A stretch of DNA of 64,000 nucleotides, from assembly GCA_023898745.1 (NCBI GenBank), contig CP060237.1:235718-299717 (forward strand), given 5' to 3'. The stretch is from Alphaproteobacteria bacterium. GTDB taxonomy: Bacteria > Pseudomonadota > Alphaproteobacteria > G02398745 > G023898745. The notes beneath the pieces were generated by a model. The model did not search any database, was not told the DNA's origin, and was given only the letters and a program-made list of their open reading frames with translations. A program made the position numbers and the translations under genes. This document shows, one piece after another, positions 6,988-51,028 of this stretch. Position 1 is the first letter of the stretch, and each line of letters opens with the position of its first letter.

Positions 6988-7400
6988 AGCTTCGTCATGG
7001 CGAGCGAAGCGTGGCCATCCATCCGTCTTCGCTAATTTTGCCAAAGGCAAAATTTAGCTACGACGAGATTGGTCGAGTCGGAGCGTGCGGAGTGGATGTC
7101 TCGCCAAAGCTCAAAGAGCGTAGGCGGGCTATCTCTCTATGGATCACCACGTCGCTCCGCTCCTCGTGATGACGGCTCGACATTCGTCATTGCGAGATTT
7201 TCGAAAGAAAATCGTGGCCATCCATGTTTTTCTTGATCACCACGCCTTGCTACGCAAGGCTCGTGATGACGGTAAATTTTGTGCTCCTCGTGATGACGGT
7301 AAATTTTGCGCTCCTCGTGATGACGATACGCTGTATGCCCTTCGTGATGACGATATCATCGAGCGGCCCACCACGTTCCAAATTCTCCTGTCAAAACCAA
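6988..7400. repeat. Composite repeat region: hairpin modules, element A copy (7015..7140), and four iterations of CTCGTGATGACG at ~27-bp period (7258..7355)
   Basis: Direct sequence repetition; it generates the spurious ORFs 7139..7408 and 7224..7478. Confidence 0.8.
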
Positions 7401-8540
7401 CTCTGTAATCGCCCATACCAATGCATCCATGCGATCTGCTGCACGGCCAGGTTTGTAGCTAGTGAGTTGTGTTTCTAACGCATTGAAATATTTACGGTGA
7501 ACCACCCTACCCTGCTCATATAACGCAATCACAGGTTCTGCACGTGTTATTTTGCTGCGCTTTGCTACAACTTCTTTGATGGGAAGTTCAGCACCATTGT
7601 GAATGTGAAACAATTCTGTAATCAGCGAACCACCTTGATTGACTTCTACAACCGCAGCATCTGCTTGGTATTTGTGATACGCGTAGCATGCTTTTTGCAC
7701 CCACTGGCATGGAGTGTAATTTCCGCTGAGATCTTCCAAAACATACACATTACCTGCATGAGATAATCCACATACAATGATGCCTGTTTCACATCCATCT
7801 TTGGTGACAGCTGGATCTAAACCAATAACAATACGTTTCAATTCAGGAACTTTTGGATTGTGCTGAAAGTATGATTGTTTAAATAATGAAAACTCATCTT
7901 CATGAAATAACTCACCATATAACTCCTGCGCACCCAAACGCGTTTTTGCATAATGCGTTTCCATATTTTGGATAAATCGCGCACTAAGATGTTTCTTGTT
8001 TTCAAACGTGGAGCCTGTTGTCACAACTGTGCCACGCAGGCGCTGCAAATCATGCAGAAGTTTTATGGGTTTTGGAGTTGTTGTGATGATGCATTTGGGT
8101 TGAGCTGACATGCGAAGTGTTAACTCAACTTGTGTCCATAATTCCTCTGGATATTTGAATTTTGCTAACTCATCAATCCACACTGTATCAAACTGCGGAC
8201 CTCTCAAGGTTTCATACTGATCGCCACCAAATAGCTGAATTCTAATATCAGATTTTTTCCACGTAATGAGACCTTCAGTTTTGCGATAATGATATGCTTT
8301 TGGCATATTCGAACTACTGAGCAAACCGCTCACACCTGCTACCATTACACGATGCGCTTCTTTGATAGTTTGACCAATTAGGGCAATATTTTTAGCCTTA
8401 CCCTGCTCCATCAATGACACAATACTTTCTGCACCTGTTTTGGTTTTACCAAAACCACGCCCGGCCATAATAAGCCAGACATAAAAATCATTGGGCAACC
8501 TTTGCTTATCGCGTGGCTGCCACCTTTGCGCAAATGTCAT
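7356..8540 (-). CDS. Phage/GTA-type terminase large subunit; orphan, with no other phage genes nearby
   Basis: Walker A motif WLIMAGRGFGKTKTGAE as in alphaproteobacterial GTA g2 terminases. The C-terminal half reads as a nuclease-like domain (GLDPAVTKDG...). 394 aa with no internal stops. Confidence 0.8.
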   Translation of the reverse strand: MTFAQRWQPRDKQRLPNDFYVWLIMAGRGFGKTKTGAESIVSLMEQGKAKNIALIGQTIKEAHRVMVAGVSGLLSSSNMPKAYHYRKTEGLITWKKSDIRIQLFGGDQYETLRGPQFDTVWIDELAKFKYPEELWTQVELTLRMSAQPKCIITTTPKPIKLLHDLQRLRGTVVTTGSTFENKKHLSARFIQNMETHYAKTRLGAQELYGELFHEDEFSLFKQSYFQHNPKVPELKRIVIGLDPAVTKDGCETGIIVCGLSHAGNVYVLEDLSGNYTPCQWVQKACYAYHKYQADAAVVEVNQGGSLITELFHIHNGAELPIKEVVAKRSKITRAEPVIALYEQGRVVHRKYFNALETQLTSYKPGRAADRMDALVWAITELVLTGEFGTWWAAR

Positions 8541-8627
8541 TTGGTGAATTTATGAGGAAATGTTTGGATTTACGATATCATGAAATGAGATGTTTTTTTA
8601 TTGCTGAGAAATTTTTGGGCTATAGTC

Positions 8628-16577: not shown

Positions 16578-18260
16578 TTACAGAGTTTTTGCAAAATCAT
16601 CGAGTTGTTGAGCGGTTGGTCTATCCTGTGGATGAAACTGCAACATGCGCGCTGTAAACTCCGCAATTCTTCTTGAGGTTGAACCAACAGCCAAGTTCTG
16701 AATTTGTGTACTCATATTGAAAGTTCTTCTTGCTTCCGTTGCCAATCCCATCCAGTCAGATTGTTTCATATCAGTTTTAAACGGAAACCCCAAAAATTGC
16801 ATCGCATAGAACACAATTCCGAGTGAGTAAATATCAATTGCTGGACCATAAAGCTCTGCAGATAAAATTTCAGGCGGCAAATACGCTGGTGTTCCACATC
16901 GTCTTCTAAGATTGTGAAAACCTTCATTTTCGGCATTTGCAAATCCATAATCCGCTAAAAACACATCTTCACCCTTCATAAATATATTGTCTAGTTTTAT
17001 ATCCCTGTGAAGCACTTGGTTTGAATGCAAATAATTCAAAACAGATGCTAACTGTTTTATCCATCGCACCATTGTGGCCTCAGACAGCTGTTTTCGCTGC
17101 AACATATAATTATATAAATCAGAATCACATTTTGGCATAACAAGCAAACCTCTTAATCCATCAAAAATAAATTGACCTTTAAGGCTGTGAGAATGCTTCG
17201 CCATCTTTAAATGACTTATAATCTCTGGAATCCCCCCTGAAGTAACATAAAACAACTTCTCAATAGTATCCTTAGATGTATTTATATACAACGCTTCTTT
17301 TCCATCTCTTCCTTCTCTTAATACTTTATAATCACGGGATTTTAACAGACCATAAACAGAGGAATCAAGTTCAGAAAATAATCCTTCTATATCTTCTGTT
17401 GCATTTATATCAGTGCTAAATTTAGCACTAGGATTTACAAATGTTGATATAGAATAAGAAAAGTGAGAAAACAAATCGGCAGATGTAAATAAAAGCACAA
17501 CTTTACCATCAATAGAACACGAACATGCAAAAGCTGAATGATGATCTTGATGCTCAACTCTAAAAAATGACTGAGCCGTAATTTCTATTTTTTGCTGACA
17601 TGCCCCCTGCTTAAGCACAATAAAATCTTCTTCAAACTCTATTTTCACTGACTCTCCGTCTAATTGGCGCAAAGGCCCAGAGGTTTTCAGGAATATACCG
17701 CCTTTTCCTAAAAAACGCTTTTCACTGTTAAAACGATCATGAAGTGCTTTCTCCTCTTGATCACGCTGATTACTGATAGTTTTGTACCCTTGATGCAATC
17801 CAGCCCCTTCTCGTGGTTTAAGCATATCTAATAAATGACAAGCAGAAGTTATAAGATAACCTCTGTATAACGCCATATAGTTAAGCTCTTCCATATACTT
17901 AAGTTCTTGACGTGAGTGTTTCTCTAAAATTTCAACGCTCCCCAATACAAACTGATTGTAAAAAGTCCTTATATTCAACGTCTCTTCATCAACAATTTCT
18001 TGCATTCGATCTACATGATCCTTCTCAAGCTTCGAAATTTCAGTAGCATAATCAATCGCAGGAGCTCTAAGAGCTAATATACTTTCCGGATCAAAATGCA
18101 AATGTTGTTGGTTTTCGCCAACTAAGCTCAAGGCTTTAGATTCACACCTTTTATAATCAGGAGTATTTATTGCTTTCCCTCCCAACGCCGGCCTTCTTGG
18201 AGTTGTTGGAACGCTTGAAGCGTGAACAACTTCAGCTGCATACAAAAAATCAAAAAACAT
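16578..18260 (-). CDS. Eukaryotic-like Ser/Thr protein kinase, paralog 2 (560 aa). N-terminal MFFDFLYAAE leader, then an ~330-aa domain of unknown function, then the kinase domain.
   Basis: VLHRDIKLDNIF, ADYGFA, GTPAYLPPE, DIYSLGIVFY. The N-terminal domain is paralogous to that of kinase 3 (RFLGKGGIFLK... versus RFLGKTGVFER...). Confidence 0.85.
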   Translation of the reverse strand: MFFDFLYAAEVVHASSVPTTPRRPALGGKAINTPDYKRCESKALSLVGENQQHLHFDPESILALRAPAIDYATEISKLEKDHVDRMQEIVDEETLNIRTFYNQFVLGSVEILEKHSRQELKYMEELNYMALYRGYLITSACHLLDMLKPREGAGLHQGYKTISNQRDQEEKALHDRFNSEKRFLGKGGIFLKTSGPLRQLDGESVKIEFEEDFIVLKQGACQQKIEITAQSFFRVEHQDHHSAFACSCSIDGKVVLLFTSADLFSHFSYSISTFVNPSAKFSTDINATEDIEGLFSELDSSVYGLLKSRDYKVLREGRDGKEALYINTSKDTIEKLFYVTSGGIPEIISHLKMAKHSHSLKGQFIFDGLRGLLVMPKCDSDLYNYMLQRKQLSEATMVRWIKQLASVLNYLHSNQVLHRDIKLDNIFMKGEDVFLADYGFANAENEGFHNLRRRCGTPAYLPPEILSAELYGPAIDIYSLGIVFYAMQFLGFPFKTDMKQSDWMGLATEARRTFNMSTQIQNLAVGSTSRRIAEFTARMLQFHPQDRPTAQQLDDFAKTL

Positions 18261-18289
18261 TAGTTCATTTTTAGAGTGAGTAGGTTTCT

Positions 18290-18318
18290 TTTTTAGGAAA
18301 TGGTTTTTAAGGTTTCAA
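18290..18318 (-). promoter_or_regulatory. Sigma70-like promoter of kinase paralog 2 (TTGAAA-17-TAAAAA)
   Basis: The reverse complement reads TTGAAACCTTAAAAACCATTTCCTAAAAA; about 22 nt from the -10 to the ATG at 18260. Confidence 0.55.
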
Positions 18319-34570: not shown

Positions 34571-36202
34571 ATGTTGCAATGGATCTTTTTATCAAACATA
34601 CATGGTAGTGACTGGGAATTTATAGAAGAAAATCAACCAAGTGCTGTGGAAATCGCACAGGGGCATGACACTTGTATCAGAAAACATTTAATTCAAATCC
34701 ATAACTTACAAACAAGTGTGGATGAACACCTGCAAAGAAGACTCTCTAGAAAAGAACATACTTTTGCAAAACGATTAAGACGTATTCATGCAAAAGGCAA
34801 TACACATCAACTCCCAATATTGGAAAAAGAAGTAAAAAGTTTCGTTAGAGATATGAAGCTGATCAAAAAATTGGATGCATTTTTTGAGAATAAATTTGCA
34901 CAAGATTTGCAAGGACCATTAAATGGGCTGCAGCATTTCTCAAGGAGTTTAAAAGCTATTTGGTTTGAAGCAGCAACCAATTATAGTGATGGAAAAAAGC
35001 CTAAGTTTTTCTTACCAAAGAAAGCTAAGGTCAGAAAAAAAGATTTATCTTTTGCATCGTTGAATGATATCAGGGCAATTATGGCAAGCTTAAAAGATGT
35101 CTTGCCTCCAATTATAGGCGCGCTACCTCCTGGAAGTTTCACTGAAAAAAACCAAAGAGATAAGGTTAAATTAGCATTTATAGATTTATGTGATGCATTT
35201 TTGGTTTATTATTGTGATCTAAATGAATTTAGCAGATTTGGAACTCTTGATTTATTACAACTGCGCCGCTGGAATATTGAAGAATTGTATAGCATCTTTG
35301 ATCAACTGCTAATGGATCCAGATGCCTTTACTGTCAGTAGAGAAATTTTCTTTAAGACAAAGCATGTAGATGATGCCTATGGTCAAGAGGAACATGCGGC
35401 TGGATACTTAGGACGAACAGCTCAAGAAGAGTATCAAACTAAAACCAAGATCCCTTTCGCTCCTTCACGAGATAAAACCATAGCAAATATAACAGCTAGA
35501 TGGAAACCTTTAAAGCAAGCTATTGAGCATTATGGAACTGCATACAATATTGATGCTGATCCTGATATGTCTTGGGTTGATGAGTATTTCAATATGCTGA
35601 AAGAGCAACATAATATGAGGCTTATTTTTTGTGATGTTACTGAGCTAGATTATGCATTATCTCAAAGAACATTTTTGGCTGTTGAGGAGTATTATCAAAA
35701 CAAACAGCTCACAAAACCTTTAGATGCAAGTAATTTTGCTGAAATGGTTCATGCGGAAGAGCGAATGCTTTTGGATATTATTTCCGCAGAGAAAAAAGGA
35801 TACATGAAATTTGCTGGAAAAAAACCACAGCCTGGAACGTTAGATCACGTGTTAACAGAGAATCAATTTAAGTGTCAGCCCGACACAACGAATGGGCATA
35901 CGCAATATAGTGGAAGAGCTGCTCAACATATTTGGTATCGCAAGGATTTACCTTTCACCGTTAGAGTGAAAACAAATGGTGAGTTTAGTATAGGCATCAC
36001 AGACTTTGATCCTCAAAATCCCAAGTCGCTATGTGATATGACACAATTTCCTGAACTTATGAAAATTGCCAAAATAGATGGACATCTATACATAATTCCA
36101 GCAGGAACCCAAGGACCTTGGAGGAATGAGCTCAATTGGCTTGATGTACAAAATCGCCCTCTAGCCTTGCAAAAGGGAGAGGGGCATTTCGATTGGAAAT
36201 AA
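34571..36202 (+). CDS. Hypothetical 543-aa protein, no recognisable domains; effector-like
   Basis: Long uninterrupted ORF flanked by repeat clusters; no signal peptide, no motif recognised. Confidence 0.55.
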   Translation: MLQWIFLSNIHGSDWEFIEENQPSAVEIAQGHDTCIRKHLIQIHNLQTSVDEHLQRRLSRKEHTFAKRLRRIHAKGNTHQLPILEKEVKSFVRDMKLIKKLDAFFENKFAQDLQGPLNGLQHFSRSLKAIWFEAATNYSDGKKPKFFLPKKAKVRKKDLSFASLNDIRAIMASLKDVLPPIIGALPPGSFTEKNQRDKVKLAFIDLCDAFLVYYCDLNEFSRFGTLDLLQLRRWNIEELYSIFDQLLMDPDAFTVSREIFFKTKHVDDAYGQEEHAAGYLGRTAQEEYQTKTKIPFAPSRDKTIANITARWKPLKQAIEHYGTAYNIDADPDMSWVDEYFNMLKEQHNMRLIFCDVTELDYALSQRTFLAVEEYYQNKQLTKPLDASNFAEMVHAEERMLLDIISAEKKGYMKFAGKKPQPGTLDHVLTENQFKCQPDTTNGHTQYSGRAAQHIWYRKDLPFTVRVKTNGEFSIGITDFDPQNPKSLCDMTQFPELMKIAKIDGHLYIIPAGTQGPWRNELNWLDVQNRPLALQKGEGHFDWK

Positions 36203-42035: not shown

Positions 42036-43088
42036 ATGCCCTACATCCTAATCGTTTTCTTTGTCATTAGCATTGCAACTCTCTACTCTGCTGCAGATGG
42101 TAGTTTTCACCCATGGGCATTCAAACAAATCCTGCGCTACGGCATAGGCGTGATGGTTATGCTTTTAACATTAAGACTACCTAGACCATTTTTTTATGCA
42201 TGGTCCTACCCCTTTTATTTCATCTGTTTAATTGCGCTCATTCTCGTAGAACTTATGGGCTTTGTAGGAATGGGCGCCAAACGTTGGTTACATTTTGGCT
42301 CACTTTATGTGCAGCCATCTGAGTTTATGCGCATCGCGGTTATTCTTGCATTAGCCCGTTACTTTGGCGACTTCAAACATCAAATTACACAAATGCGCAC
42401 CCTTGTTGTGCCAGCATTTATGGTGATGATTCCTGTTCTGCTTATTGCAAAACAGCCTGATTTAGGGACAGCTCTGCTGATTATGGGCAGCAGTTTATTT
42501 ATGGCCTTATCATCCGGCATTCAGTTATGGAAATTTGGCGCAGCATTTTTAACATTGGGCGGATTATCACCAATTCTATGGAAATTTTTACATGAATATC
42601 AAAAAAAACGTATCTTGGTATTTTTATTTCCTGAAACAGATATTCAAAATGCTGGATACCATGTGATGCAATCCAAAATTGCTATTGGATCCAGTGGTTT
42701 GTTTGGGAAGGGGTTCATGCAAAGCACACAAGCACGTTTACAATTTTTGCCAGAGAAGCAAACAGATTTTATTTTTGCCATGATTGTTGAAGAATGGGGC
42801 AGCATTGCGGCTGTTGTATTAATTGTTCTTTATCTTTGGATCATTGTTTGGGGGCTAAACCGTGCGGATCGTCTCAAAAATCGCTTTGAAATGTTTACTG
42901 TATGCGGATTGATCTCATCCATTTTCGTTTACGCATTTGTGAATATGGGAATGTGCATGGGAATTTTGCCAATTGTGGGAATTCCTTTGCCTTTTTTATC
43001 TTATGGCGGCACATCACTTTTGAGTTTATTTTTATCTTTGGGAATTGTCTATCGTTTTCATCTGCCAAAAGTTAGACGGTTTGTTTAA
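42036..43088 (+). CDS. SEDS-family peptidoglycan glycosyltransferase (RodA/FtsW)
   Basis: About 10 TM helices; conserved SEDS segments (KQPDLGTALL; GSSGLFGKGF; MIVEEWG); at 350 aa its length is RodA-like. Confidence 0.78.
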   Translation: MPYILIVFFVISIATLYSAADGSFHPWAFKQILRYGIGVMVMLLTLRLPRPFFYAWSYPFYFICLIALILVELMGFVGMGAKRWLHFGSLYVQPSEFMRIAVILALARYFGDFKHQITQMRTLVVPAFMVMIPVLLIAKQPDLGTALLIMGSSLFMALSSGIQLWKFGAAFLTLGGLSPILWKFLHEYQKKRILVFLFPETDIQNAGYHVMQSKIAIGSSGLFGKGFMQSTQARLQFLPEKQTDFIFAMIVEEWGSIAAVVLIVLYLWIIVWGLNRADRLKNRFEMFTVCGLISSIFVYAFVNMGMCMGILPIVGIPLPFLSYGGTSLLSLFLSLGIVYRFHLPKVRRFV

Positions 43089-43107: not shown

Positions 43108-43485
43108 TCGTCATGGCTAGCGAAGCATGGCCATCTATTATGGATCACCACGGGACTTCATCCCTCGTGATGACACCCCTGAGGTTGGCATGGCTAGCGA
43201 AGCATGGCCATCTATTGGATCGCCACGTCGCTCTGCGCTCCTCGTGATCTGATTCATTCCCACGAATTAAATATGCGCAGACGTCATCACGAGCCTTGCG
43301 TAGCAAGGCGTGGTAATCCAGAAAAACATGGATGGCCACGCCGCCTTCGCTAAAGCTAAGGCGCGCTCGCCATGACGGTAGCTGTCCTTATATTGTTCTA
43401 TCCATTTCTCTAGAAGAAAAGCTTGCATGGTTAAGCGTTTAAGACTTTTTGGATTTTAGAAAATTCGTGGGGATGGGTAAGCTTG
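43108..43485. repeat. Composite repeat region (two GTCATGGCTAGCG hairpins, hairpin modules, inverted element C)
   Basis: cgtcatggctagcgaagcatggccatcta occurs twice (43109, 43188); the element C copy is at 43365..43485. Confidence 0.8.
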
Positions 43486-43511: not shown

Positions 43512-46397
43512 TTAGTAGAAACCGTTAGGGCCGTAATTGCAGCAACCTGATCTATCATAACAGTTGCTTTGAGAACATCCTTGACCTAAGTTGCAACACT
43601 CTTCTTCAAAATACTCATCATCATAGCATGTGCTTTTGCATTTAAAGTTTTTCTTTGGTTCTTTTTCTTCAGTGAAGCCACATCCTTCACTGTATCCACA
43701 ACTTTTTGTTGGTTTACCGCAATAATCTGCTTCATGATGATCATCATGATAAATACCTTCATCACATTTAGGTTTTGAGCAACATGTCTTTGGGCAGTGC
43801 ACAAGATCGCCGCATTTTGTTACTTTGTAAAGCTTTGGACGCTCATCGTAGAATCCTACTGTATATCTAAACACAACTTCAGTTTTTGACTCTTTGAATT
43901 GCAAATCAAACAAACGATATCTACATCCTTTTGAGTTATAAGCATAAAGTGTATAGCACTCTTTTTTGTGATTTTTGAATGTGAGCATTACATCATTGCT
44001 CTCATCATTTCTCACGCCACAGCATGACATGTTTACAAATTGCAAACCTTCATCTGAAATGTATTGGCAGAAACATCTATCACCATAACGATCATATACA
44101 ACCAAACGATAGCAACATGTTTTATCATTTCTAAACAAGAACGCAAGCTCTTTATTGTGATCATTATCTAGATCACAGCACAAGAAATCTACAAAACGCT
44201 CACATCGATCTGCAATGATACGGCTGAAAATTGGAACAGTTGTTCCTGTATCTGTCAAAACGTACAAGCGTGTTTGTCCATTTGCCTCTTTCATTGTAAC
44301 GATTAATTCGTTAAATCCGTTGTTATCGATATCGCAGAATCCAACATTTTGCACACGTCCATCAGGCAACTCCACTGGGCAAATTCTTGTTGTGCCGTCT
44401 GCATTCAAAATAAACAACACATTTGACCCGCCGGAAATCTTGTAAGCAAACACAACACCATCATCCACATATTGGAAATATTGTTGCAAAATTGCATCTT
44501 GCGCAATTTTTATTTTTTGACCCACTGTTGCTTGGGTTGTTGTTAGATCTAAGAAACTGTAAGCACTAAAATGACACTCGTTTTTCAAAACAAGAATGAG
44601 TCTCTTAATATCTGTTGTTTGCTCACAACATACAAGCGCAAAGAACTTATCTCCTTTTAGACCAAGTGTCTTAGGATACGTATGTCCATAAACTTCAGTT
44701 ACACCTGTTCCATTTTCACTAATATTATAAAGCTCAAGTTTATGAAGTCCTTGAGGTGTTTTTAACACTACAACGAACTCTTTATCACCTGAAGCTCCTG
44801 TTGTAATAATTTCTCTCGTGAAATCACAACACTCAATATGCGCAAGAGAATCGCCTGGAGTTCCTAAATTCATCGTTTGAGACAACAATGCTGGAATTCC
44901 CATTCCTGCTGGCGTCACAACTAGAACATGTAGGCGCAATTGATTTAGTCTCGCATCTCTCAACACAACGAAAATTGCACGCTTTTCAAATGCGCCTGTA
45001 TCTGAATTTTTTGCAATATCGCAGCATTCAATTCTCTCAACGATATCACCACAATACCCAACAGACGCTGGACAAATCACGTTTGTTCCATCTGGATCAA
45101 CGATGAAAATAAAGTTTTGCATATCATCATTTTGGAACACAAAAATTACTTCAGATTGCAAATCCATATCTGCATTACACTCATGCGCAAACAAAGTAAG
45201 TCCATTTGTGAATGTTCCACCTACGAGACCGCCTGCGTTATTAAATCCAAATAGTTTAAATTTACCGCTTGCATCTTTTAGTGTTACGAACACTTGATCA
45301 ACCTCTTCGCAACATGTGACACTCACAAACGCTTCATTTCCAGCACCGAAAGTAACGCCAGAAGCTTGTGTTGTTGCGCCAGTTGTTTCAAAAATATGGA
45401 ACTTGAATTTTCCATCAGTTCCTCTCATGATCACAACTATTTCAGAATCTGCTGCAGTTGTTACATCACAACACAACAAACTAACAAATTTATCACCTGA
45501 GGCACCTAAAACTAAATGATTTCCAGCTCCCGTATTGAGGTCAACTAACCCAACTTGATTCAAAACTGCTGCTGCTGCGCTCTTATAAACTCTATTTTGT
45601 CCATTCACTTCAAATACAGCAAAAAACTGGTTATTACAGCAGAATGTTTTTATAAAGCTCGCTGAAAGTGGCAAATCTGTAGGGGCTTCAAATTGCTCTA
45701 AATCAATAGGTGTAGCTGAAGGAGCTGCAGGATTTATAGCAGCTGAAACATATTCTTGATCAGTTATATCTCTTGCAATAACCTGCAAGAAACCTATATC
45801 AGTTAGGCCTGGCGTTGCTGTTCCGCAACAATTTAAATCAACTAATTCTAATACGTTACCTGGAAAGCCCATTTTTTGTAGCGTCAAAGGCCCTGTGTCT
45901 GGAGTATTCATACTGCCTACATTCACTGGACTACCTGTGTGAGTATAGCGATAAATAAGAATTTGACCATTTTCCTTCATTGCAACATAAATCTCTTTAA
46001 ACCCATCTTCTCCTTGAGTGTCGTCCGGAGAAGCTGGAGTAGCTGGAGGTGTTACTGTATCTAAAATATCGCAACATGTAAGTGCTAAAAACTCATCGCA
46101 AGTTCCGCACATAGTTTGCGCACCAAACTTACCACAACGTGGCACAAATGTTTGACTCACTTGCCCCATATGATTAAACTCAATCGCCTCATATTGACCT
46201 GCAGGATCAACTAAAAGCAAAAGAACAGTTTGACTGTCACTGCAACAGTAAAACTTATTATTCGCCCCAATGCTGATATTCTTGTTTACCAACTTTCCTG
46301 TTTGTGAAACGGGTCCTTTGAGTGTGTAATTCTTAGTTGAATCATCTACTTCAAGTGTAAAACCTTCGTTTTGACAACTATAAATAAACTTTGCCAT
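43512..46397 (-). CDS. Giant (961 aa) repeat protein of about 13 FG-GAP/VCBS-like ~65-aa repeats, each with a vicinal Cys-Cys dipeptide, plus a Cys/His-rich C-terminal tail
   Basis: 15 CC dipeptides at quasi-regular spacing (FYCCSD, LTCCDIL, LLCCDVT, VTCCEEVD, IECCDIA, IECCDFT, LVCCEQTT, FLCCDLD...). FCDIDNNGFNELIV resembles the FG-GAP calcium-binding loop. The tail is CPKTCCSKPKCDEG...CCNLGQGCSQSNCYDRSGCCNYG. Confidence 0.7.
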   Translation of the reverse strand: MAKFIYSCQNEGFTLEVDDSTKNYTLKGPVSQTGKLVNKNISIGANNKFYCCSDSQTVLLLLVDPAGQYEAIEFNHMGQVSQTFVPRCGKFGAQTMCGTCDEFLALTCCDILDTVTPPATPASPDDTQGEDGFKEIYVAMKENGQILIYRYTHTGSPVNVGSMNTPDTGPLTLQKMGFPGNVLELVDLNCCGTATPGLTDIGFLQVIARDITDQEYVSAAINPAAPSATPIDLEQFEAPTDLPLSASFIKTFCCNNQFFAVFEVNGQNRVYKSAAAAVLNQVGLVDLNTGAGNHLVLGASGDKFVSLLCCDVTTAADSEIVVIMRGTDGKFKFHIFETTGATTQASGVTFGAGNEAFVSVTCCEEVDQVFVTLKDASGKFKLFGFNNAGGLVGGTFTNGLTLFAHECNADMDLQSEVIFVFQNDDMQNFIFIVDPDGTNVICPASVGYCGDIVERIECCDIAKNSDTGAFEKRAIFVVLRDARLNQLRLHVLVVTPAGMGIPALLSQTMNLGTPGDSLAHIECCDFTREIITTGASGDKEFVVVLKTPQGLHKLELYNISENGTGVTEVYGHTYPKTLGLKGDKFFALVCCEQTTDIKRLILVLKNECHFSAYSFLDLTTTQATVGQKIKIAQDAILQQYFQYVDDGVVFAYKISGGSNVLFILNADGTTRICPVELPDGRVQNVGFCDIDNNGFNELIVTMKEANGQTRLYVLTDTGTTVPIFSRIIADRCERFVDFLCCDLDNDHNKELAFLFRNDKTCCYRLVVYDRYGDRCFCQYISDEGLQFVNMSCCGVRNDESNDVMLTFKNHKKECYTLYAYNSKGCRYRLFDLQFKESKTEVVFRYTVGFYDERPKLYKVTKCGDLVHCPKTCCSKPKCDEGIYHDDHHEADYCGKPTKSCGYSEGCGFTEEKEPKKNFKCKSTCYDDEYFEEECCNLGQGCSQSNCYDRSGCCNYGPNGFY

Positions 46398-46947
46398 AAT
46401 TTTTAATCATTAAGATTCTTTACCTTATTATATCATATTTAAGTAATATTAAAATATATATTTAAGTATTTTTGAAATATTTTTTCCGTCTTCGCTTTCG
46501 CCATCGCCCAAAGGGCTATGGCGAAATAGCTACGACGCGACTGCGTCGGAGCGTACGAAACGGAACCTCGCCGTAGCTTGAAGAGCGTAGGCGGGTTAAC
46601 CTTTTGTACACACTTTCTCCTTCCACAATGAAGCAGAAGCTCTTGATCAAGTGAGGTTTTTTGAAAAACTATATAAAATTCCTAGCGCTTAGTCTTGTGG
46701 AAGGCCTGGTGCATTATGATCTGAGAAAAACCTTGCTCACTGTAGTTTTAAGCTTTATATTAACGCATTTCTGCATGCATATGCATGAATATTATTATTT
46801 TTATATTCGCGAGAAGAATGAAAAAAAGATGTGCGCATTTTGGAAGCAGATGTCATCGTGACGTCATCACGAGGAGCGCAGCGACGTGGTGATCCATGGA
46901 GGTAGCCCGCCTACGCTCTTTGAGCTTCGGCGAGACTTCGAAGTCGC

Positions 46948-49316: not shown

Positions 49317-49709
49317 ATGTTTTTTTTATTCAGTTCTGCTGAGCAAACACAAGCCGTTGCAGCTGTAGTGTTTTCATATTCAATCCAGGAGGGATCTACA
49401 GTTGATATACCTCAGGCGTTTCCAAATGGCACAAAAACTTTAGAACTGCGCTCAACGACCGGTCAATGGAATAAGTTAATAATAGATCAATTGGAAAATA
49501 TTTTAAGTCAGCCAGGCTTGGAGAGCTTAGAAAAAATACGCCTCATTAATGTTAGAAGTCTAACCGAAAATCAGATAAAGGAGCTCTCTGAAAAATTATG
49601 GCAACACTCTAAAACAGTGCAAGAAATCGTATGGGGGGATTATTCTTGGAAACGTGACAAACCGCTTTTGATGTCTGCTCAGGAAAAATCCCTACCTATT
49701 TCCGGTTAA
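49317..49709 (+). CDS. Hypothetical 130-aa protein with an MFFLFSSAEQ leader
   Basis: The ORF is preceded by an AGGAG RBS; the leader is nearly identical to that of the DacC-like PBP (MFFLFSKA). Confidence 0.45.
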   Translation: MFFLFSSAEQTQAVAAVVFSYSIQEGSTVDIPQAFPNGTKTLELRSTTGQWNKLIIDQLENILSQPGLESLEKIRLINVRSLTENQIKELSEKLWQHSKTVQEIVWGDYSWKRDKPLLMSAQEKSLPISG

Positions 49710-51028
49710 AAAAGAGGATACGAGTTCGTATGGCTCATGATCATCTGAGAAACAAAACTCTCTGAATCGTCTATTTCAGACACGTAATTTACCAAAAAAT
49801 TATGAATAACAGGATGTAATCTTTCTTTACCTTCAGGGCTAAATGCTAGCATGCCGATAGAGTCTGCAAATTTTTTTACATCTTCTATAAAAAGATACTC
49901 TTCAAACATTTTATCTTTCAATGGTTGGGGTACTGCTGCTAAACTCTGCTCCACAAAATCTTTGCGCCTCATAAGAGCTCTGTATGGTCTAAGAAATCTA
50001 ATACTCTCATTATGCCTACATAAACGATAAAAATAATCCGTAAATGCTTGGCTATTTCGATATTGATCAAGCTCAAAACCCATGTCTAACTCCTGCACAA
50101 TTCCAGAAAATTCCTGTCGAAACTCTGCGTCTTCTCCAAGTTTTTTATATAGCACCGCAATAAATTCTGGCCGAAAGATAAATACATCAAAAAGAAGGTC
50201 TTGCTTGCAGACTTCATCGTATGAAAAATTCATCGACTGCACATCGATTAAACTAAACACGCCTGTCTCTTTGTCATAAAACACATTATTCGCGTTTAAA
50301 TCATTATGCGCCCCATGCATAAATTTATGAAATTTTCTCAATCTTCGTCCGAAATCTGCTAAGACATTTGAAGCATCTGCATCATTCCTACGATCTCGCA
50401 GAAAGGCTATTATAGAAACTCCTGGCGCACATGGCATAATGACCCACGATCGATTAATATCTCTCCGGGAAACAACTTGTACAGGCATAATTACCCTTAA
50501 GGCATTCTGCGCTACAAGAAACGGGTTCATTTCATTTAAATGCTTTAAATTATAAAGCTCTGACTCTGGAGATGATCTCGCAAGCAATATACTTTCGATT
50601 GTTACAGAATACGCCTGCCTGGCTTGCTGAGCAGCTACCGCATTTTCTTGCAAAACTTTTATAATATAATCATTCACTCTTCGACTTGGATCCATCACAT
50701 GAACACCTTTGACTTTCCATAAAGCTTCTGTAAAAGAACCTTGCGCCTCCATTACCTGTGCATTTGGAACTGGATTAGGCAAAAAATATGGCTGAATTAA
50801 AATTTCGGGTCCAATTGCTGGATCTTGATCTCCATCACTGTCAACCATCGGAGCTCCATACTCACCCTCGCCTGCTATTGCCATAACTATTTCATCTGAC
50901 TGCACATCCTCTCCAGAATCATCAGATTCTTTGCGAAAAAAATACCCACCTACAAATGTTATTGTGGGAAAAATCAACGCACTCCCTAAAAAAACCGCCC
51001 CATGAATAACGCCATAATTTTTGCTCAT
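49706..51028 (-). CDS. Membrane-anchored protein-kinase-like (PKL) fold protein (aminoglycoside/choline/Kdo-kinase-like)
   Basis: N-terminal TM helix (GVIHGAVFLGSALIFPTITFVGGYFF) and an acidic linker. A Brenner-type catalytic loop HGAHNDLNANNVFYD and the metal-binding LIDVQS, analogous to HGDLHPGN...IDFE of APH/Kdo kinases. Confidence 0.5.
   Translation of the reverse strand: MSKNYGVIHGAVFLGSALIFPTITFVGGYFFRKESDDSGEDVQSDEIVMAIAGEGEYGAPMVDSDGDQDPAIGPEILIQPYFLPNPVPNAQVMEAQGSFTEALWKVKGVHVMDPSRRVNDYIIKVLQENAVAAQQARQAYSVTIESILLARSSPESELYNLKHLNEMNPFLVAQNALRVIMPVQVVSRRDINRSWVIMPCAPGVSIIAFLRDRRNDADASNVLADFGRRLRKFHKFMHGAHNDLNANNVFYDKETGVFSLIDVQSMNFSYDEVCKQDLLFDVFIFRPEFIAVLYKKLGEDAEFRQEFSGIVQELDMGFELDQYRNSQAFTDYFYRLCRHNESIRFLRPYRALMRRKDFVEQSLAAVPQPLKDKMFEEYLFIEDVKKFADSIGMLAFSPEGKERLHPVIHNFLVNYVSEIDDSESFVSQMIMSHTNSYPLF

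Follow-up and report, generated by a model that had tools for sequence, protein, structure and literature searches.

An excess of Cys-Cys pairs in a 961-residue bacterial protein

Beta-propellers are a much-studied repeat fold in which hydrophobic packing, "velcro" closure and, in the FG-GAP types, Ca2+ loops normally keep the blades together, and the question raised here is what would hold together a propeller that carries a pair of adjacent cysteines in nearly every blade. Such a protein is encoded by an open reading frame (ORF) in a 64-kb stretch of the alphaproteobacterial contig CP060237.1, which is referred to below as the window. The protein is 961 aa long and is recorded in GenBank as USO02633.1, "hypothetical protein H6850_01435", from a metagenome-assembled genome (MAG) labeled Alphaproteobacteria bacterium. 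According to our analysis, the gene product is a large soluble protein in which two consecutive beta-propellers comprise approximately 16 four-strand blades derived from FG-GAP/VCBS repeats. Coordinates of all features are collected in Table 1.

Cysteine accounts for 55 of the 961 residues (5.7%), compared with ~1% in the neighboring ORFs. The original prediction, made by reading the sequence without database searches, had reported 15 Cys-Cys dipeptides (CCs), and our count agreed, placing them at residues 51, 108, 190, 253, 309, 362, 458, 523, 590, 740, 761, 792, 872, 934, and 952. Shuffling the residues of the protein (2,000 trials) yielded a mean of 3.1 CCs and a maximum of 10, while for the first 850 residues, which hold 12 CCs, the shuffled mean was 1.7 and the maximum 7. 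No CC occurred in any other stop-to-stop frame of at least 150 aa in the window, and the cysteine content of these frames ranged from 0 to 3.4%. The earlier impression that there is no obvious signal peptide was likewise confirmed by a Kyte-Doolittle scan, in which the highest mean of any 15-residue segment starting within the first 40 residues was 0.17, and no transmembrane-like segment was detected along the whole protein.

Conservation of the cysteines and distribution of the family

Our searches comprised an exhaustive HMMER scan of 1.84 billion cluster representatives and a word-index search of 5.8 billion clusters, covering ~15 billion proteins overall. The HMMER scan returned seven matches in total, namely the query itself, one ortholog (P0002), one distant CC-rich relative (P0003), and four ordinary FG-GAP/VCBS proteins, and both searches agreed on a CC-blade family of three members (USO02633.1, P0002, and P0003). 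P0002, an 848-aa protein from Logan run SRR22387913, is 45–49% identical to the query and keeps 12 of the 12 repeat-region CCs; it also begins with the same MAKFIY, which confirms the ATG start of the 961-aa ORF. Specifically, 35 of 42 cysteines (83%) are conserved in P0002, compared with 365 of 830 other residues (44%; Fisher p = 6e-7), and on this comparison cysteine is the most strongly conserved residue type in the protein.

A family this tiny, in which most blades no longer match Pfam, could be read as nothing special, i.e., as a decaying or spurious ORF whose CCs reflect chance or composition, but we assign practically no probability to this explanation. The 961-codon frame is intact, the ortholog shares both the start and all of the repeat-region CCs, the cysteines are conserved above all other residues, and 15 CCs stand against ~3 expected. 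In addition, an identical 961-aa protein was assembled from an independent sequencing run. Because of the intact ortholog and this identical protein, we regard the ORF as a functional gene and not a pseudogene, the latter being the outcome on which the original prediction would have fallen; the CC excess, the ortholog, and the conservation of cysteine exclude an origin of the ORF by chance or decay.

The distant member, P0003, has ~22 blades with mostly intact Ca2+ loops, and ~19 of its 21 CCs occur in the blade context CCD(L/I)NxDGxNE(I/L)(L/V). Two helical inserts (residues ~190–480 and ~830–990) contain ~40–50-aa repeats with a (G)CSCxEI(A/S)xAL motif, for which Pfam reports no family. P0003 is probably a paralog of P0002 within one organism, since the two come from the same sample and match in GC content (33%). 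Its gene lies in an ordinary bacterial context next to genes for MacB/FtsX-domain, short-chain dehydrogenase, peptidase S49, exonuclease VII small-subunit, and PF1765-like proteins, and these neighbors have no counterparts within the window. Neither P0002 nor P0003 has a signal peptide at the N terminus, and none of the three members has a lipobox. The C terminus of P0003 is a basic HKKRKL that resembles an export or nuclear-localization-type tail and takes the place of the Cys/His-rich tail of the 961-aa protein (see below).

Further relatives were not found: a repeat-profile search with a 39-blade alignment against the 5.8-billion-cluster database gave 94 word-sharing candidates, none of them significant, a search with P0003 returned only P0003 itself, a scan of the GTDB species representatives with the ortholog alignment revealed no relative, and a tblastn comparison of all three members with every locus retrieved added nothing. 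We found no literature description of vicinal cysteines as such a motif in FG-GAP or other propellers, and no paper was found that mentions the run accessions. Fold and repeat family are both known, whereas the per-blade Cys-Cys substitution has not been described in the libraries or literature searched, and the same holds for the strict conservation of the CCs, the loss of the Ca2+ loops, and the missing export signal.

Repeat units and positions of the cysteine pairs

Analysis of the repeats revealed that 11 of the 15 CCs share one context, which across the family blades gives the consensus sdGDeFVdLfCCDLNNDGkNEILVILKDntGqYKLYaFNnkG. The repeat unit is ~50 aa long with four strands, and in 11 blades its first strand ends in the CC. 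A blade hidden Markov model (HMM), built from 39 CC-anchored family units, detected 14 blades in the 961-aa protein and the same 14 in P0002. The AlphaFold2 (AF2) models show one more unit at each end, a short one at the N terminus (SC7-8) and one at the C terminus (residues 828–870), which gives 16 units designated B0 to B15. The original prediction had described ~13 repeats, each with a CC in a similar context and spaced 50–70 residues apart. The repeats and their periodic context stand, but the count rises to 14 by HMM and to 16 four-strand units in the models, the shared context does not extend to CC761 (just ahead of the third strand of B13) or to the three CCs in the tail, and the spacing of the blade CCs is 52–96 residues plus one 150-residue gap across two CC-less blades. 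Three further blades keep the second cysteine only (C8, C407, and C688). In both AF2 models, the CC is located at or near the end of the first strand of its unit: in most blades it is among the last three residues, and overall no more than two to five residues separate it from the strand end, with the strand extending slightly further in B8 and B13.

The AF2 four-strand units, the blade HMM, and a half-to-half alignment divide the protein into two halves of eight units, which align to each other. A four-blade super-repeat was considered and rejected, as the similarity of blades at offset 4 (mean 37.1) was no better than that at offset 1 (36.8). In addition to the CCs, a "CP" motif follows the third strand of B7 and has equivalents in B11 and B15. 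It is confined to blades without the first cysteine of the pair (B7, B11, and B15; Fisher p = 0.018), and in P0003 CP likewise occurs in blades lacking the first cysteine (4 of 4 blades, p = 0.002), with CP-type blades at every third position compared with every fourth in the 961-aa protein. This association may reflect a blade subtype inherited by duplication (the similarity score of B7 and B11 is 63).

Relation to FG-GAP/VCBS repeats

The likeness of the units to FG-GAP/VCBS repeats (PF13517 and PF01839, FG-GAP) includes the ~50-aa four-strand blade, the propeller fold, and the register, i.e., a hydrophobic strand 1, a D-x-D/N-x-D/N-G-x-x-D/E loop, a hydrophobic strand 2, and a (K/R)-L-Y-x-N-x-G turn. 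Pfam FG-GAP_3 recognizes a single stretch of the 961-aa protein, which covers B12 and B13 and carries the near-canonical Ca2+ loops DIDNNGFNE (B12) and DLDNDHNKE (B13). The one repeat that had been singled out earlier as canonical, FCDIDNNGFNELIV at residues 687–700, falls where FG-GAP_3 scores above its gathering threshold and so was correctly recognized; P0002 scores below the threshold. With phmmer, four bona fide FG-GAP/VCBS proteins matched with E-values from 6e-4 down to 9e-11, three of which (P0004–P0006) carry sorting domains of the type IX secretion system (T9SS). The protein differs from these canonical matches in cysteine content (~5.7% versus 0.4–1.3%) and in having neither a signal peptide nor a sorting domain.

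The position of the CC within the blade was resolved by alignment. Against the canonical FG-GAP protein P0004, phmmer placed FC687-688, CC740-741, and CC792-793 on "FA", "FI", and "FA", directly before D-I-D/N-x-D-G, and a profile comparison with hhalign, 39 CC blades versus 24 canonical ones (E-value of 1.7e-4, probability 49%), put the second cysteine on the residue preceding the first Asp; the Asp following the CC is retained (CCD) in 16 of the 39 family blades. According to these alignments, the CC stands in for the F/I-G/A/S dipeptide at the end of the first strand, immediately ahead of the Ca2+ loop's first Asp. The original prediction that it replaces a "G-D" was incorrect, as the canonical blades have "FA", "FS", or "IG" at this position, ahead of the first Asp of DxDxDG. 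Among the 16 blades, C-C takes the place of the dipeptide in 11 and x-C does so in 3, and the Ca2+ loop is near-intact in 2 (B12 and B13) and degenerate, shortened, or expanded in 14.

In integrin crystal structures, the Ca2+ sites are found in the hairpins that connect strand 1 to strand 2. The alpha propellers of integrins arrange their four-strand blades about a central pore and carry the Ca2+ sites on the bottom face, and their cysteines are located inside individual blades, on non-homologous strands or linkers, with no repeated position (PMC12383024). By homology, we infer that the innermost strands would carry the CC pairs at their bottom ends, which would place the pairs around the hub near the central pore.

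Predicted fold

Structure prediction by AF2 gave a predicted local distance difference test (pLDDT) score of 56.6 and a predicted template modeling (pTM) score of 0.46 for the full-length protein (alignment of 2 sequences), with an all-beta structure and a disordered tail, and scores of 64.2 and 0.67, respectively, for residues 1–450 (alignment of 4 sequences), in which strand blocks reached a pLDDT of 70–87. Foldseek matched the full-length model to the multi-propeller proteins DDB1, EMC1, and Elp1 at a probability of 1.0 and a low template modeling (TM) score, and the structure matches were similar for 7-bladed (PLL lectin, WD40) and 8-bladed (DPP-IV, NirF/NirN) propellers. These models support a beta-propeller of four-strand blades, and the number of units suggests an arrangement of 2 × 8, with possibly 8 rather than 7 blades per propeller. 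The propeller/VCBS-like scaffold proposed earlier, for which structure prediction had been named as the check, is thus borne out, with Pfam, phmmer, hhalign, the all-beta units, and the propeller matches in agreement. We also observed that the 961 residues include no Trp, which is unusual for a propeller of such size.

The Cys/His-rich tail

The last 100 residues of the protein contain 16 Cys and 4 His; the Cys/His richness noted earlier for this region therefore holds, but the number of cysteines is lower than the ~20 claimed. The tail is absent from P0002, which ends at the aligned position of residue ~883. A zinc-ribbon-like stretch at residues 857–895 weakly resembles eS31/S27a (CCSKPKC...YCGKP versus CSNPTC...YCGKC) in an alignment that is not significant (E = 0.45), and the best PDB matches to this stretch ranged from E = 0.45 to 1.8. 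In the same non-significant alignment, three of the four cysteines that we take to be the zinc ligands of eS31 line up with those of the stretch. While metallothioneins have roughly 20–30% Cys, arranged in CxC/CxxC/CC clusters, and few aromatic residues, the tail has 16% Cys with several Tyr and Phe. A match to the NCBIfam entry "Cys-Cys-COOH protein SaoC" (E = 0.02, 14.7 bits versus an 80-bit cutoff) was discarded as noise.

Possible roles of the cysteine pairs

The reading that we favor, tentatively and without calling it probable, is that the protein serves as a rigid scaffold for binding, with metal-thiolate links stapling its blades, and works in a reducing compartment; the compartment and the chemistry are preferred because no family member has an export signal. 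Each propeller would present a ring of ~14 thiols around its hub, and the thiol pairs would serve as ligands of bridging metal ions (Zn2+, Cu+, or Fe) that staple neighboring blades together. Such staples would take over the stabilizing role of the aromatic/small-residue packing and of the Ca2+ loops, which are decayed in all but 2 of the 16 blades. The protein would work in the bacterial cytoplasm, or in the host cytosol after non-Sec delivery, with the Cys/His tail as a further, dispensable metal-binding appendage, and the stapled double propeller would offer a rigid platform without enzymatic activity, to which a partner from the host or the envelope would plausibly bind.

Several observations weigh against the metal-stapled scaffold. 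CC is not a classical Zn motif, Pfam and NCBIfam gave no match to a metallothionein-like or other metal-binding family in the 961-aa protein, and the tail, being absent from P0002, is not essential to the shared function. The confidence of the models is moderate (pLDDT 57–64), and the hub location and S–S distances of the CCs derive from homology to integrin-type propellers. Canonical FG-GAP/VCBS proteins are overwhelmingly extracellular, and the nearest canonical matches carry T9SS sorting domains; an export route may therefore exist, in which case disulfides would be the simpler chemistry. Finally, lineage-specific cysteines appear to have come or gone two at a time (732/775, 814/825, and 862/872 in the 961-aa protein and 800/813 in P0002), a turnover more typical of disulfide pairs.

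These last points bear on the main alternative, which we judge somewhat unlikely, namely that the protein is an exported, disulfide-cross-linked surface or adhesin protein, which would leave the cytoplasm by a non-Sec route (type I secretion system [T1SS], type IV secretion system [T4SS], or release at an infectious stage) and whose CCs would then be oxidized. The second cysteine of one blade (n-1) could pair with the first cysteine of the next (n), or each CC could close into an eight-membered vicinal ring, which would make the propeller very rigid, with the tail forming intermolecular cross-links. Consistent with this alternative are the extracellular FG-GAP/VCBS relatives with T9SS tails (P0004–P0006), the appearance of non-conserved cysteines in twos, and the presence in the window of genes for Gram-negative envelope machinery (BamB, TamB, and a SurA-like protein). 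However, no signal peptide is present in any of the three family members, substrates of the T1SS tend to be poor in cysteine, and no Dsb or secretion genes were seen within the window.

The inter-blade variant makes a specific statement about which cysteines pair. With CP as a substitute for the first cysteine, it leaves no unpaired cysteine over 16 blades (permutation p = 0.007) and also accounts for the co-absence of cysteine at V644 and F687 and for the non-Cys residues at both chain ends, whereas two alternatives leave four mismatches each. This test was post hoc, however, with six models tried, and when the CP rule is dropped, the vicinal and the n-1 model each leave three mismatches (p = 0.08). 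Moreover, C673 of the B11 CP motif lies in the outermost strand of its blade in the AF2 model (residues 670–677), so distant from the hub that it could not reach C591, and duplication of a blade subtype could explain the correlation between CP and the missing first cysteine. For these reasons, the inter-blade pairing rule was not adopted and is regarded as a lead only.

The original prediction had likened the protein to the disulfide-cross-linked envelope proteins of chlamydiae and proposed a surface or adhesin role, for which we found no support: the three members have no signal peptide or lipobox, and there is no Pfam or NCBIfam match of this kind. OmcA and OmcB share the richness in cysteine and belong to intracellular bacteria, but they show no homology to the 961-aa protein and have a different fold, and the organism here is an alphaproteobacterium and not a chlamydia.

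Metal storage or sequestration, in which the cysteine rings and the Cys/His tail would buffer many soft ions (Cu+, Cd2+, or Zn2+) on the same principle as the Cys-lined copper storage proteins (Csp) or metallothioneins, with metal being more than a structural staple, appears improbable to us. The high cysteine content with CC motifs, the disordered Cys/His-rich tail, the many extra CSC motifs in the helical inserts of P0003, and the lack of an export signal are all compatible with such a function, but 5.7% Cys is far below the level of metallothioneins, and most of the 961 residues form an ordinary propeller scaffold that would be costly for a 0.95-Mb genome. In addition, P0002 does without the tail, and no metal-homeostasis genes adjoin the CC-protein gene.

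We consider very improbable a propeller that acts as a redox sensor or sink through vicinal dithiols, either by dithiol/disulfide cycling or by arsenite-like or electrophile binding. A functional vicinal Cys-Cys disulfide is known in one propeller enzyme, pyrroloquinoline quinone (PQQ) methanol dehydrogenase, and intra-blade pairing fits as well as inter-blade pairing once CP is ignored. Nevertheless, a protein with eleven strained rings of this kind would be without precedent, the blades of C8, C407, and C688 hold one cysteine of the pair only, and neither the protein nor the adjoining genes contain a redox partner or regulator domain. PQQ methanol dehydrogenase is an 8-bladed propeller, and the 961-aa protein shows a weak strand-3/4 resemblance (LYAxNxxG-type) to PQQ-like and designer "Bagel" 8-blade repeats, but the enzyme has one CC per protein rather than per blade, is periplasmic with a signal peptide, and has Trp-docking motifs. 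No PQQ repeat was matched by Pfam in the 961-aa protein, which, having no Trp, has no Trp-docking motif.

For the metal-stapled scaffold, the nitrous oxide reductase NosZ, a 7-bladed periplasmic propeller that holds the CuZ cluster at its hub via His ligands, offers a functional analogy only: successive blades contribute ligands near the axis for a multinuclear metal center, the geometry proposed here for the cysteine ring. NosZ differs in using His and not Cys ligands and has no sequence or family relationship to the 961-aa protein, in which the metal is a proposal only. More specifically, the ~14 thiolates of each hub could close into a multinuclear metal-thiolate cluster or a continuous inter-blade disulfide chain, an undescribed propeller lock that would define a new "CC-blade" class, but we regard such closure as doubtful. 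A Cys-Cys swap in nearly every blade would point to a different stabilizing or cofactor-binding principle (a ring of metal-thiolate links or a chain of disulfides between blades), which would be of interest for protein design and metalloprotein discovery.

Genomic setting and other features of the window

The CC-protein gene stands alone, with ruvB, dksA, a MarR-type regulator, and several orphans nearby, and promoter and terminator scans around it gave nothing above shuffled expectation. The contig is 953 kb long, and the closest RuvB proteins among the GTDB species representatives, from a 1.33-Mb alphaproteobacterial MAG and a Holosporaceae-labeled MAG, are 58–61% identical, which indicates that there is no close reference genome. 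Given the contig size and these small-genome or Holosporaceae-labeled relatives, a reduced-genome, host-associated (symbiont) lineage is plausible. Large orphan proteins under purifying selection in a probably host-associated alphaproteobacterial genome of ~0.95 Mb, as is the case here, are prime candidates for host interaction.

Table 1. Coordinates of the CC-protein gene, its parts, and other features (nucleotide positions refer to the window unless another locus is named)
Feature	Residues	Nucleotides	Strand	Remarks
CC-protein ORF, complete	1-961 + stop	43512-46397	minus	uninterrupted; ATG start; end coordinate includes stop
N-terminal propeller half, B0-B7	1-448	45054-46397	minus	
C-terminal propeller half, B8-B15	449-870	43788-45053	minus	
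CC-position dipeptides, B0-B7	SC7-8, CC51, CC108, CC190, CC253, CC309, CC362, EC406-407			
CC-position dipeptides, B8-B15	CC458, CC523, CC590, YV643-644, FC687-688, CC740, CC792			B15 no Cys
CP motif, B7	C442-P443	45072-45077	minus	equivalents C673-P674 (B11), C868-P869 (B15)
Pfam FG-GAP_3 (PF13517) match, B12-B13	689-752	44142-44333	minus	32.7 bits vs gathering 26.9
Zinc-ribbon-like stretch	857-895	43713-43829	minus	
Cys/His-rich tail	871-961	43515-43787	minus	predicted disordered, pLDDT ~25
P0003, distant family member	1536 aa	L002 4925-9535		Logan run SRR22387913; 21 CCs
rodA		42036-43088		downstream of CC-protein gene, convergent
Upstream intergenic region, 550 nt		46398-46947	minus	100 nt nearest start AT-rich; GC-rich dispersed-repeat copies further up
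Hairpin		46496-46526		in upstream intergenic region
GAGCGTAGGCGGG repeat copies		46567-46598, 46903-46934; also 5389, 7116, 21282, 36276, 54014		
ORF directly upstream	220 aa	46948-47610	minus	same strand as CC-protein gene; no Pfam match; hydrophobic end WIFGMMIAAIAAFAPLVYYAA
Three tandem kinase-domain ORFs	436, 578, 578 aa	14830-16137, 16581-18314, 18404-20137	minus	C-terminal Pkinase, E 1e-29 to 3e-37
Phage-type terminase large subunit		7359-8549	minus	Terminase_6N, Terminase_6C; isolated among housekeeping genes
Large ORFs without Pfam family	437-740 aa	10086-12305, 21920-24118, 49706-51028	minus	
Large ORFs without Pfam family	437-740 aa	51146-52459, 34571-36202	plus	
Triosephosphate isomerase	197 aa	38184-38777	plus	aligns to 2-242 of 245-position Pfam profile

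Otherwise, the window contains housekeeping genes and host-interaction-like genes, including three Ser/Thr-kinase-domain ORFs and a tetratricopeptide repeat (TPR) protein. The three tandem ORFs with eukaryotic-type kinase domains could be host-targeting effectors; their N-terminal regions have no Pfam match. Besides the CC-blade protein, the window is rich in lineage-specific orphan proteins, for which the Pfam cutoff was E ≤ 1e-5 (E ≤ 1e-3 for 49706-51028). Judging from its hydrophobic end, the 220-aa ORF directly upstream of the CC-protein gene may encode a tail-anchored membrane protein. The terminase gene could be a remnant of a prophage or gene-transfer agent. The triosephosphate isomerase is short for the span of the profile that it covers, which implies that internal segments have been deleted or, possibly, that the enzyme is reduced or degenerating.

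The 64 kb contain 7 copies of a GC-rich repeat that is dispersed over intergenic regions and has the core GAGCGTAGGCGGG, compared with 0.02 expected. Two of the copies (46567-46598 and 46903-46934) form a 32-nt inverted repeat just upstream of the CC-protein gene. On the other side of the gene, a 64-aa "ORF" (43145-43339) is flanked by 14-nt inverted-repeat arms (43109-43122 and 43364-43377) and looks repeat-associated rather than like a gene. The GC-rich repeats resemble the palindromic elements of reduced genomes that are similar to repetitive extragenic palindromes (REPs) or miniature inverted-repeat transposable elements (MITEs).

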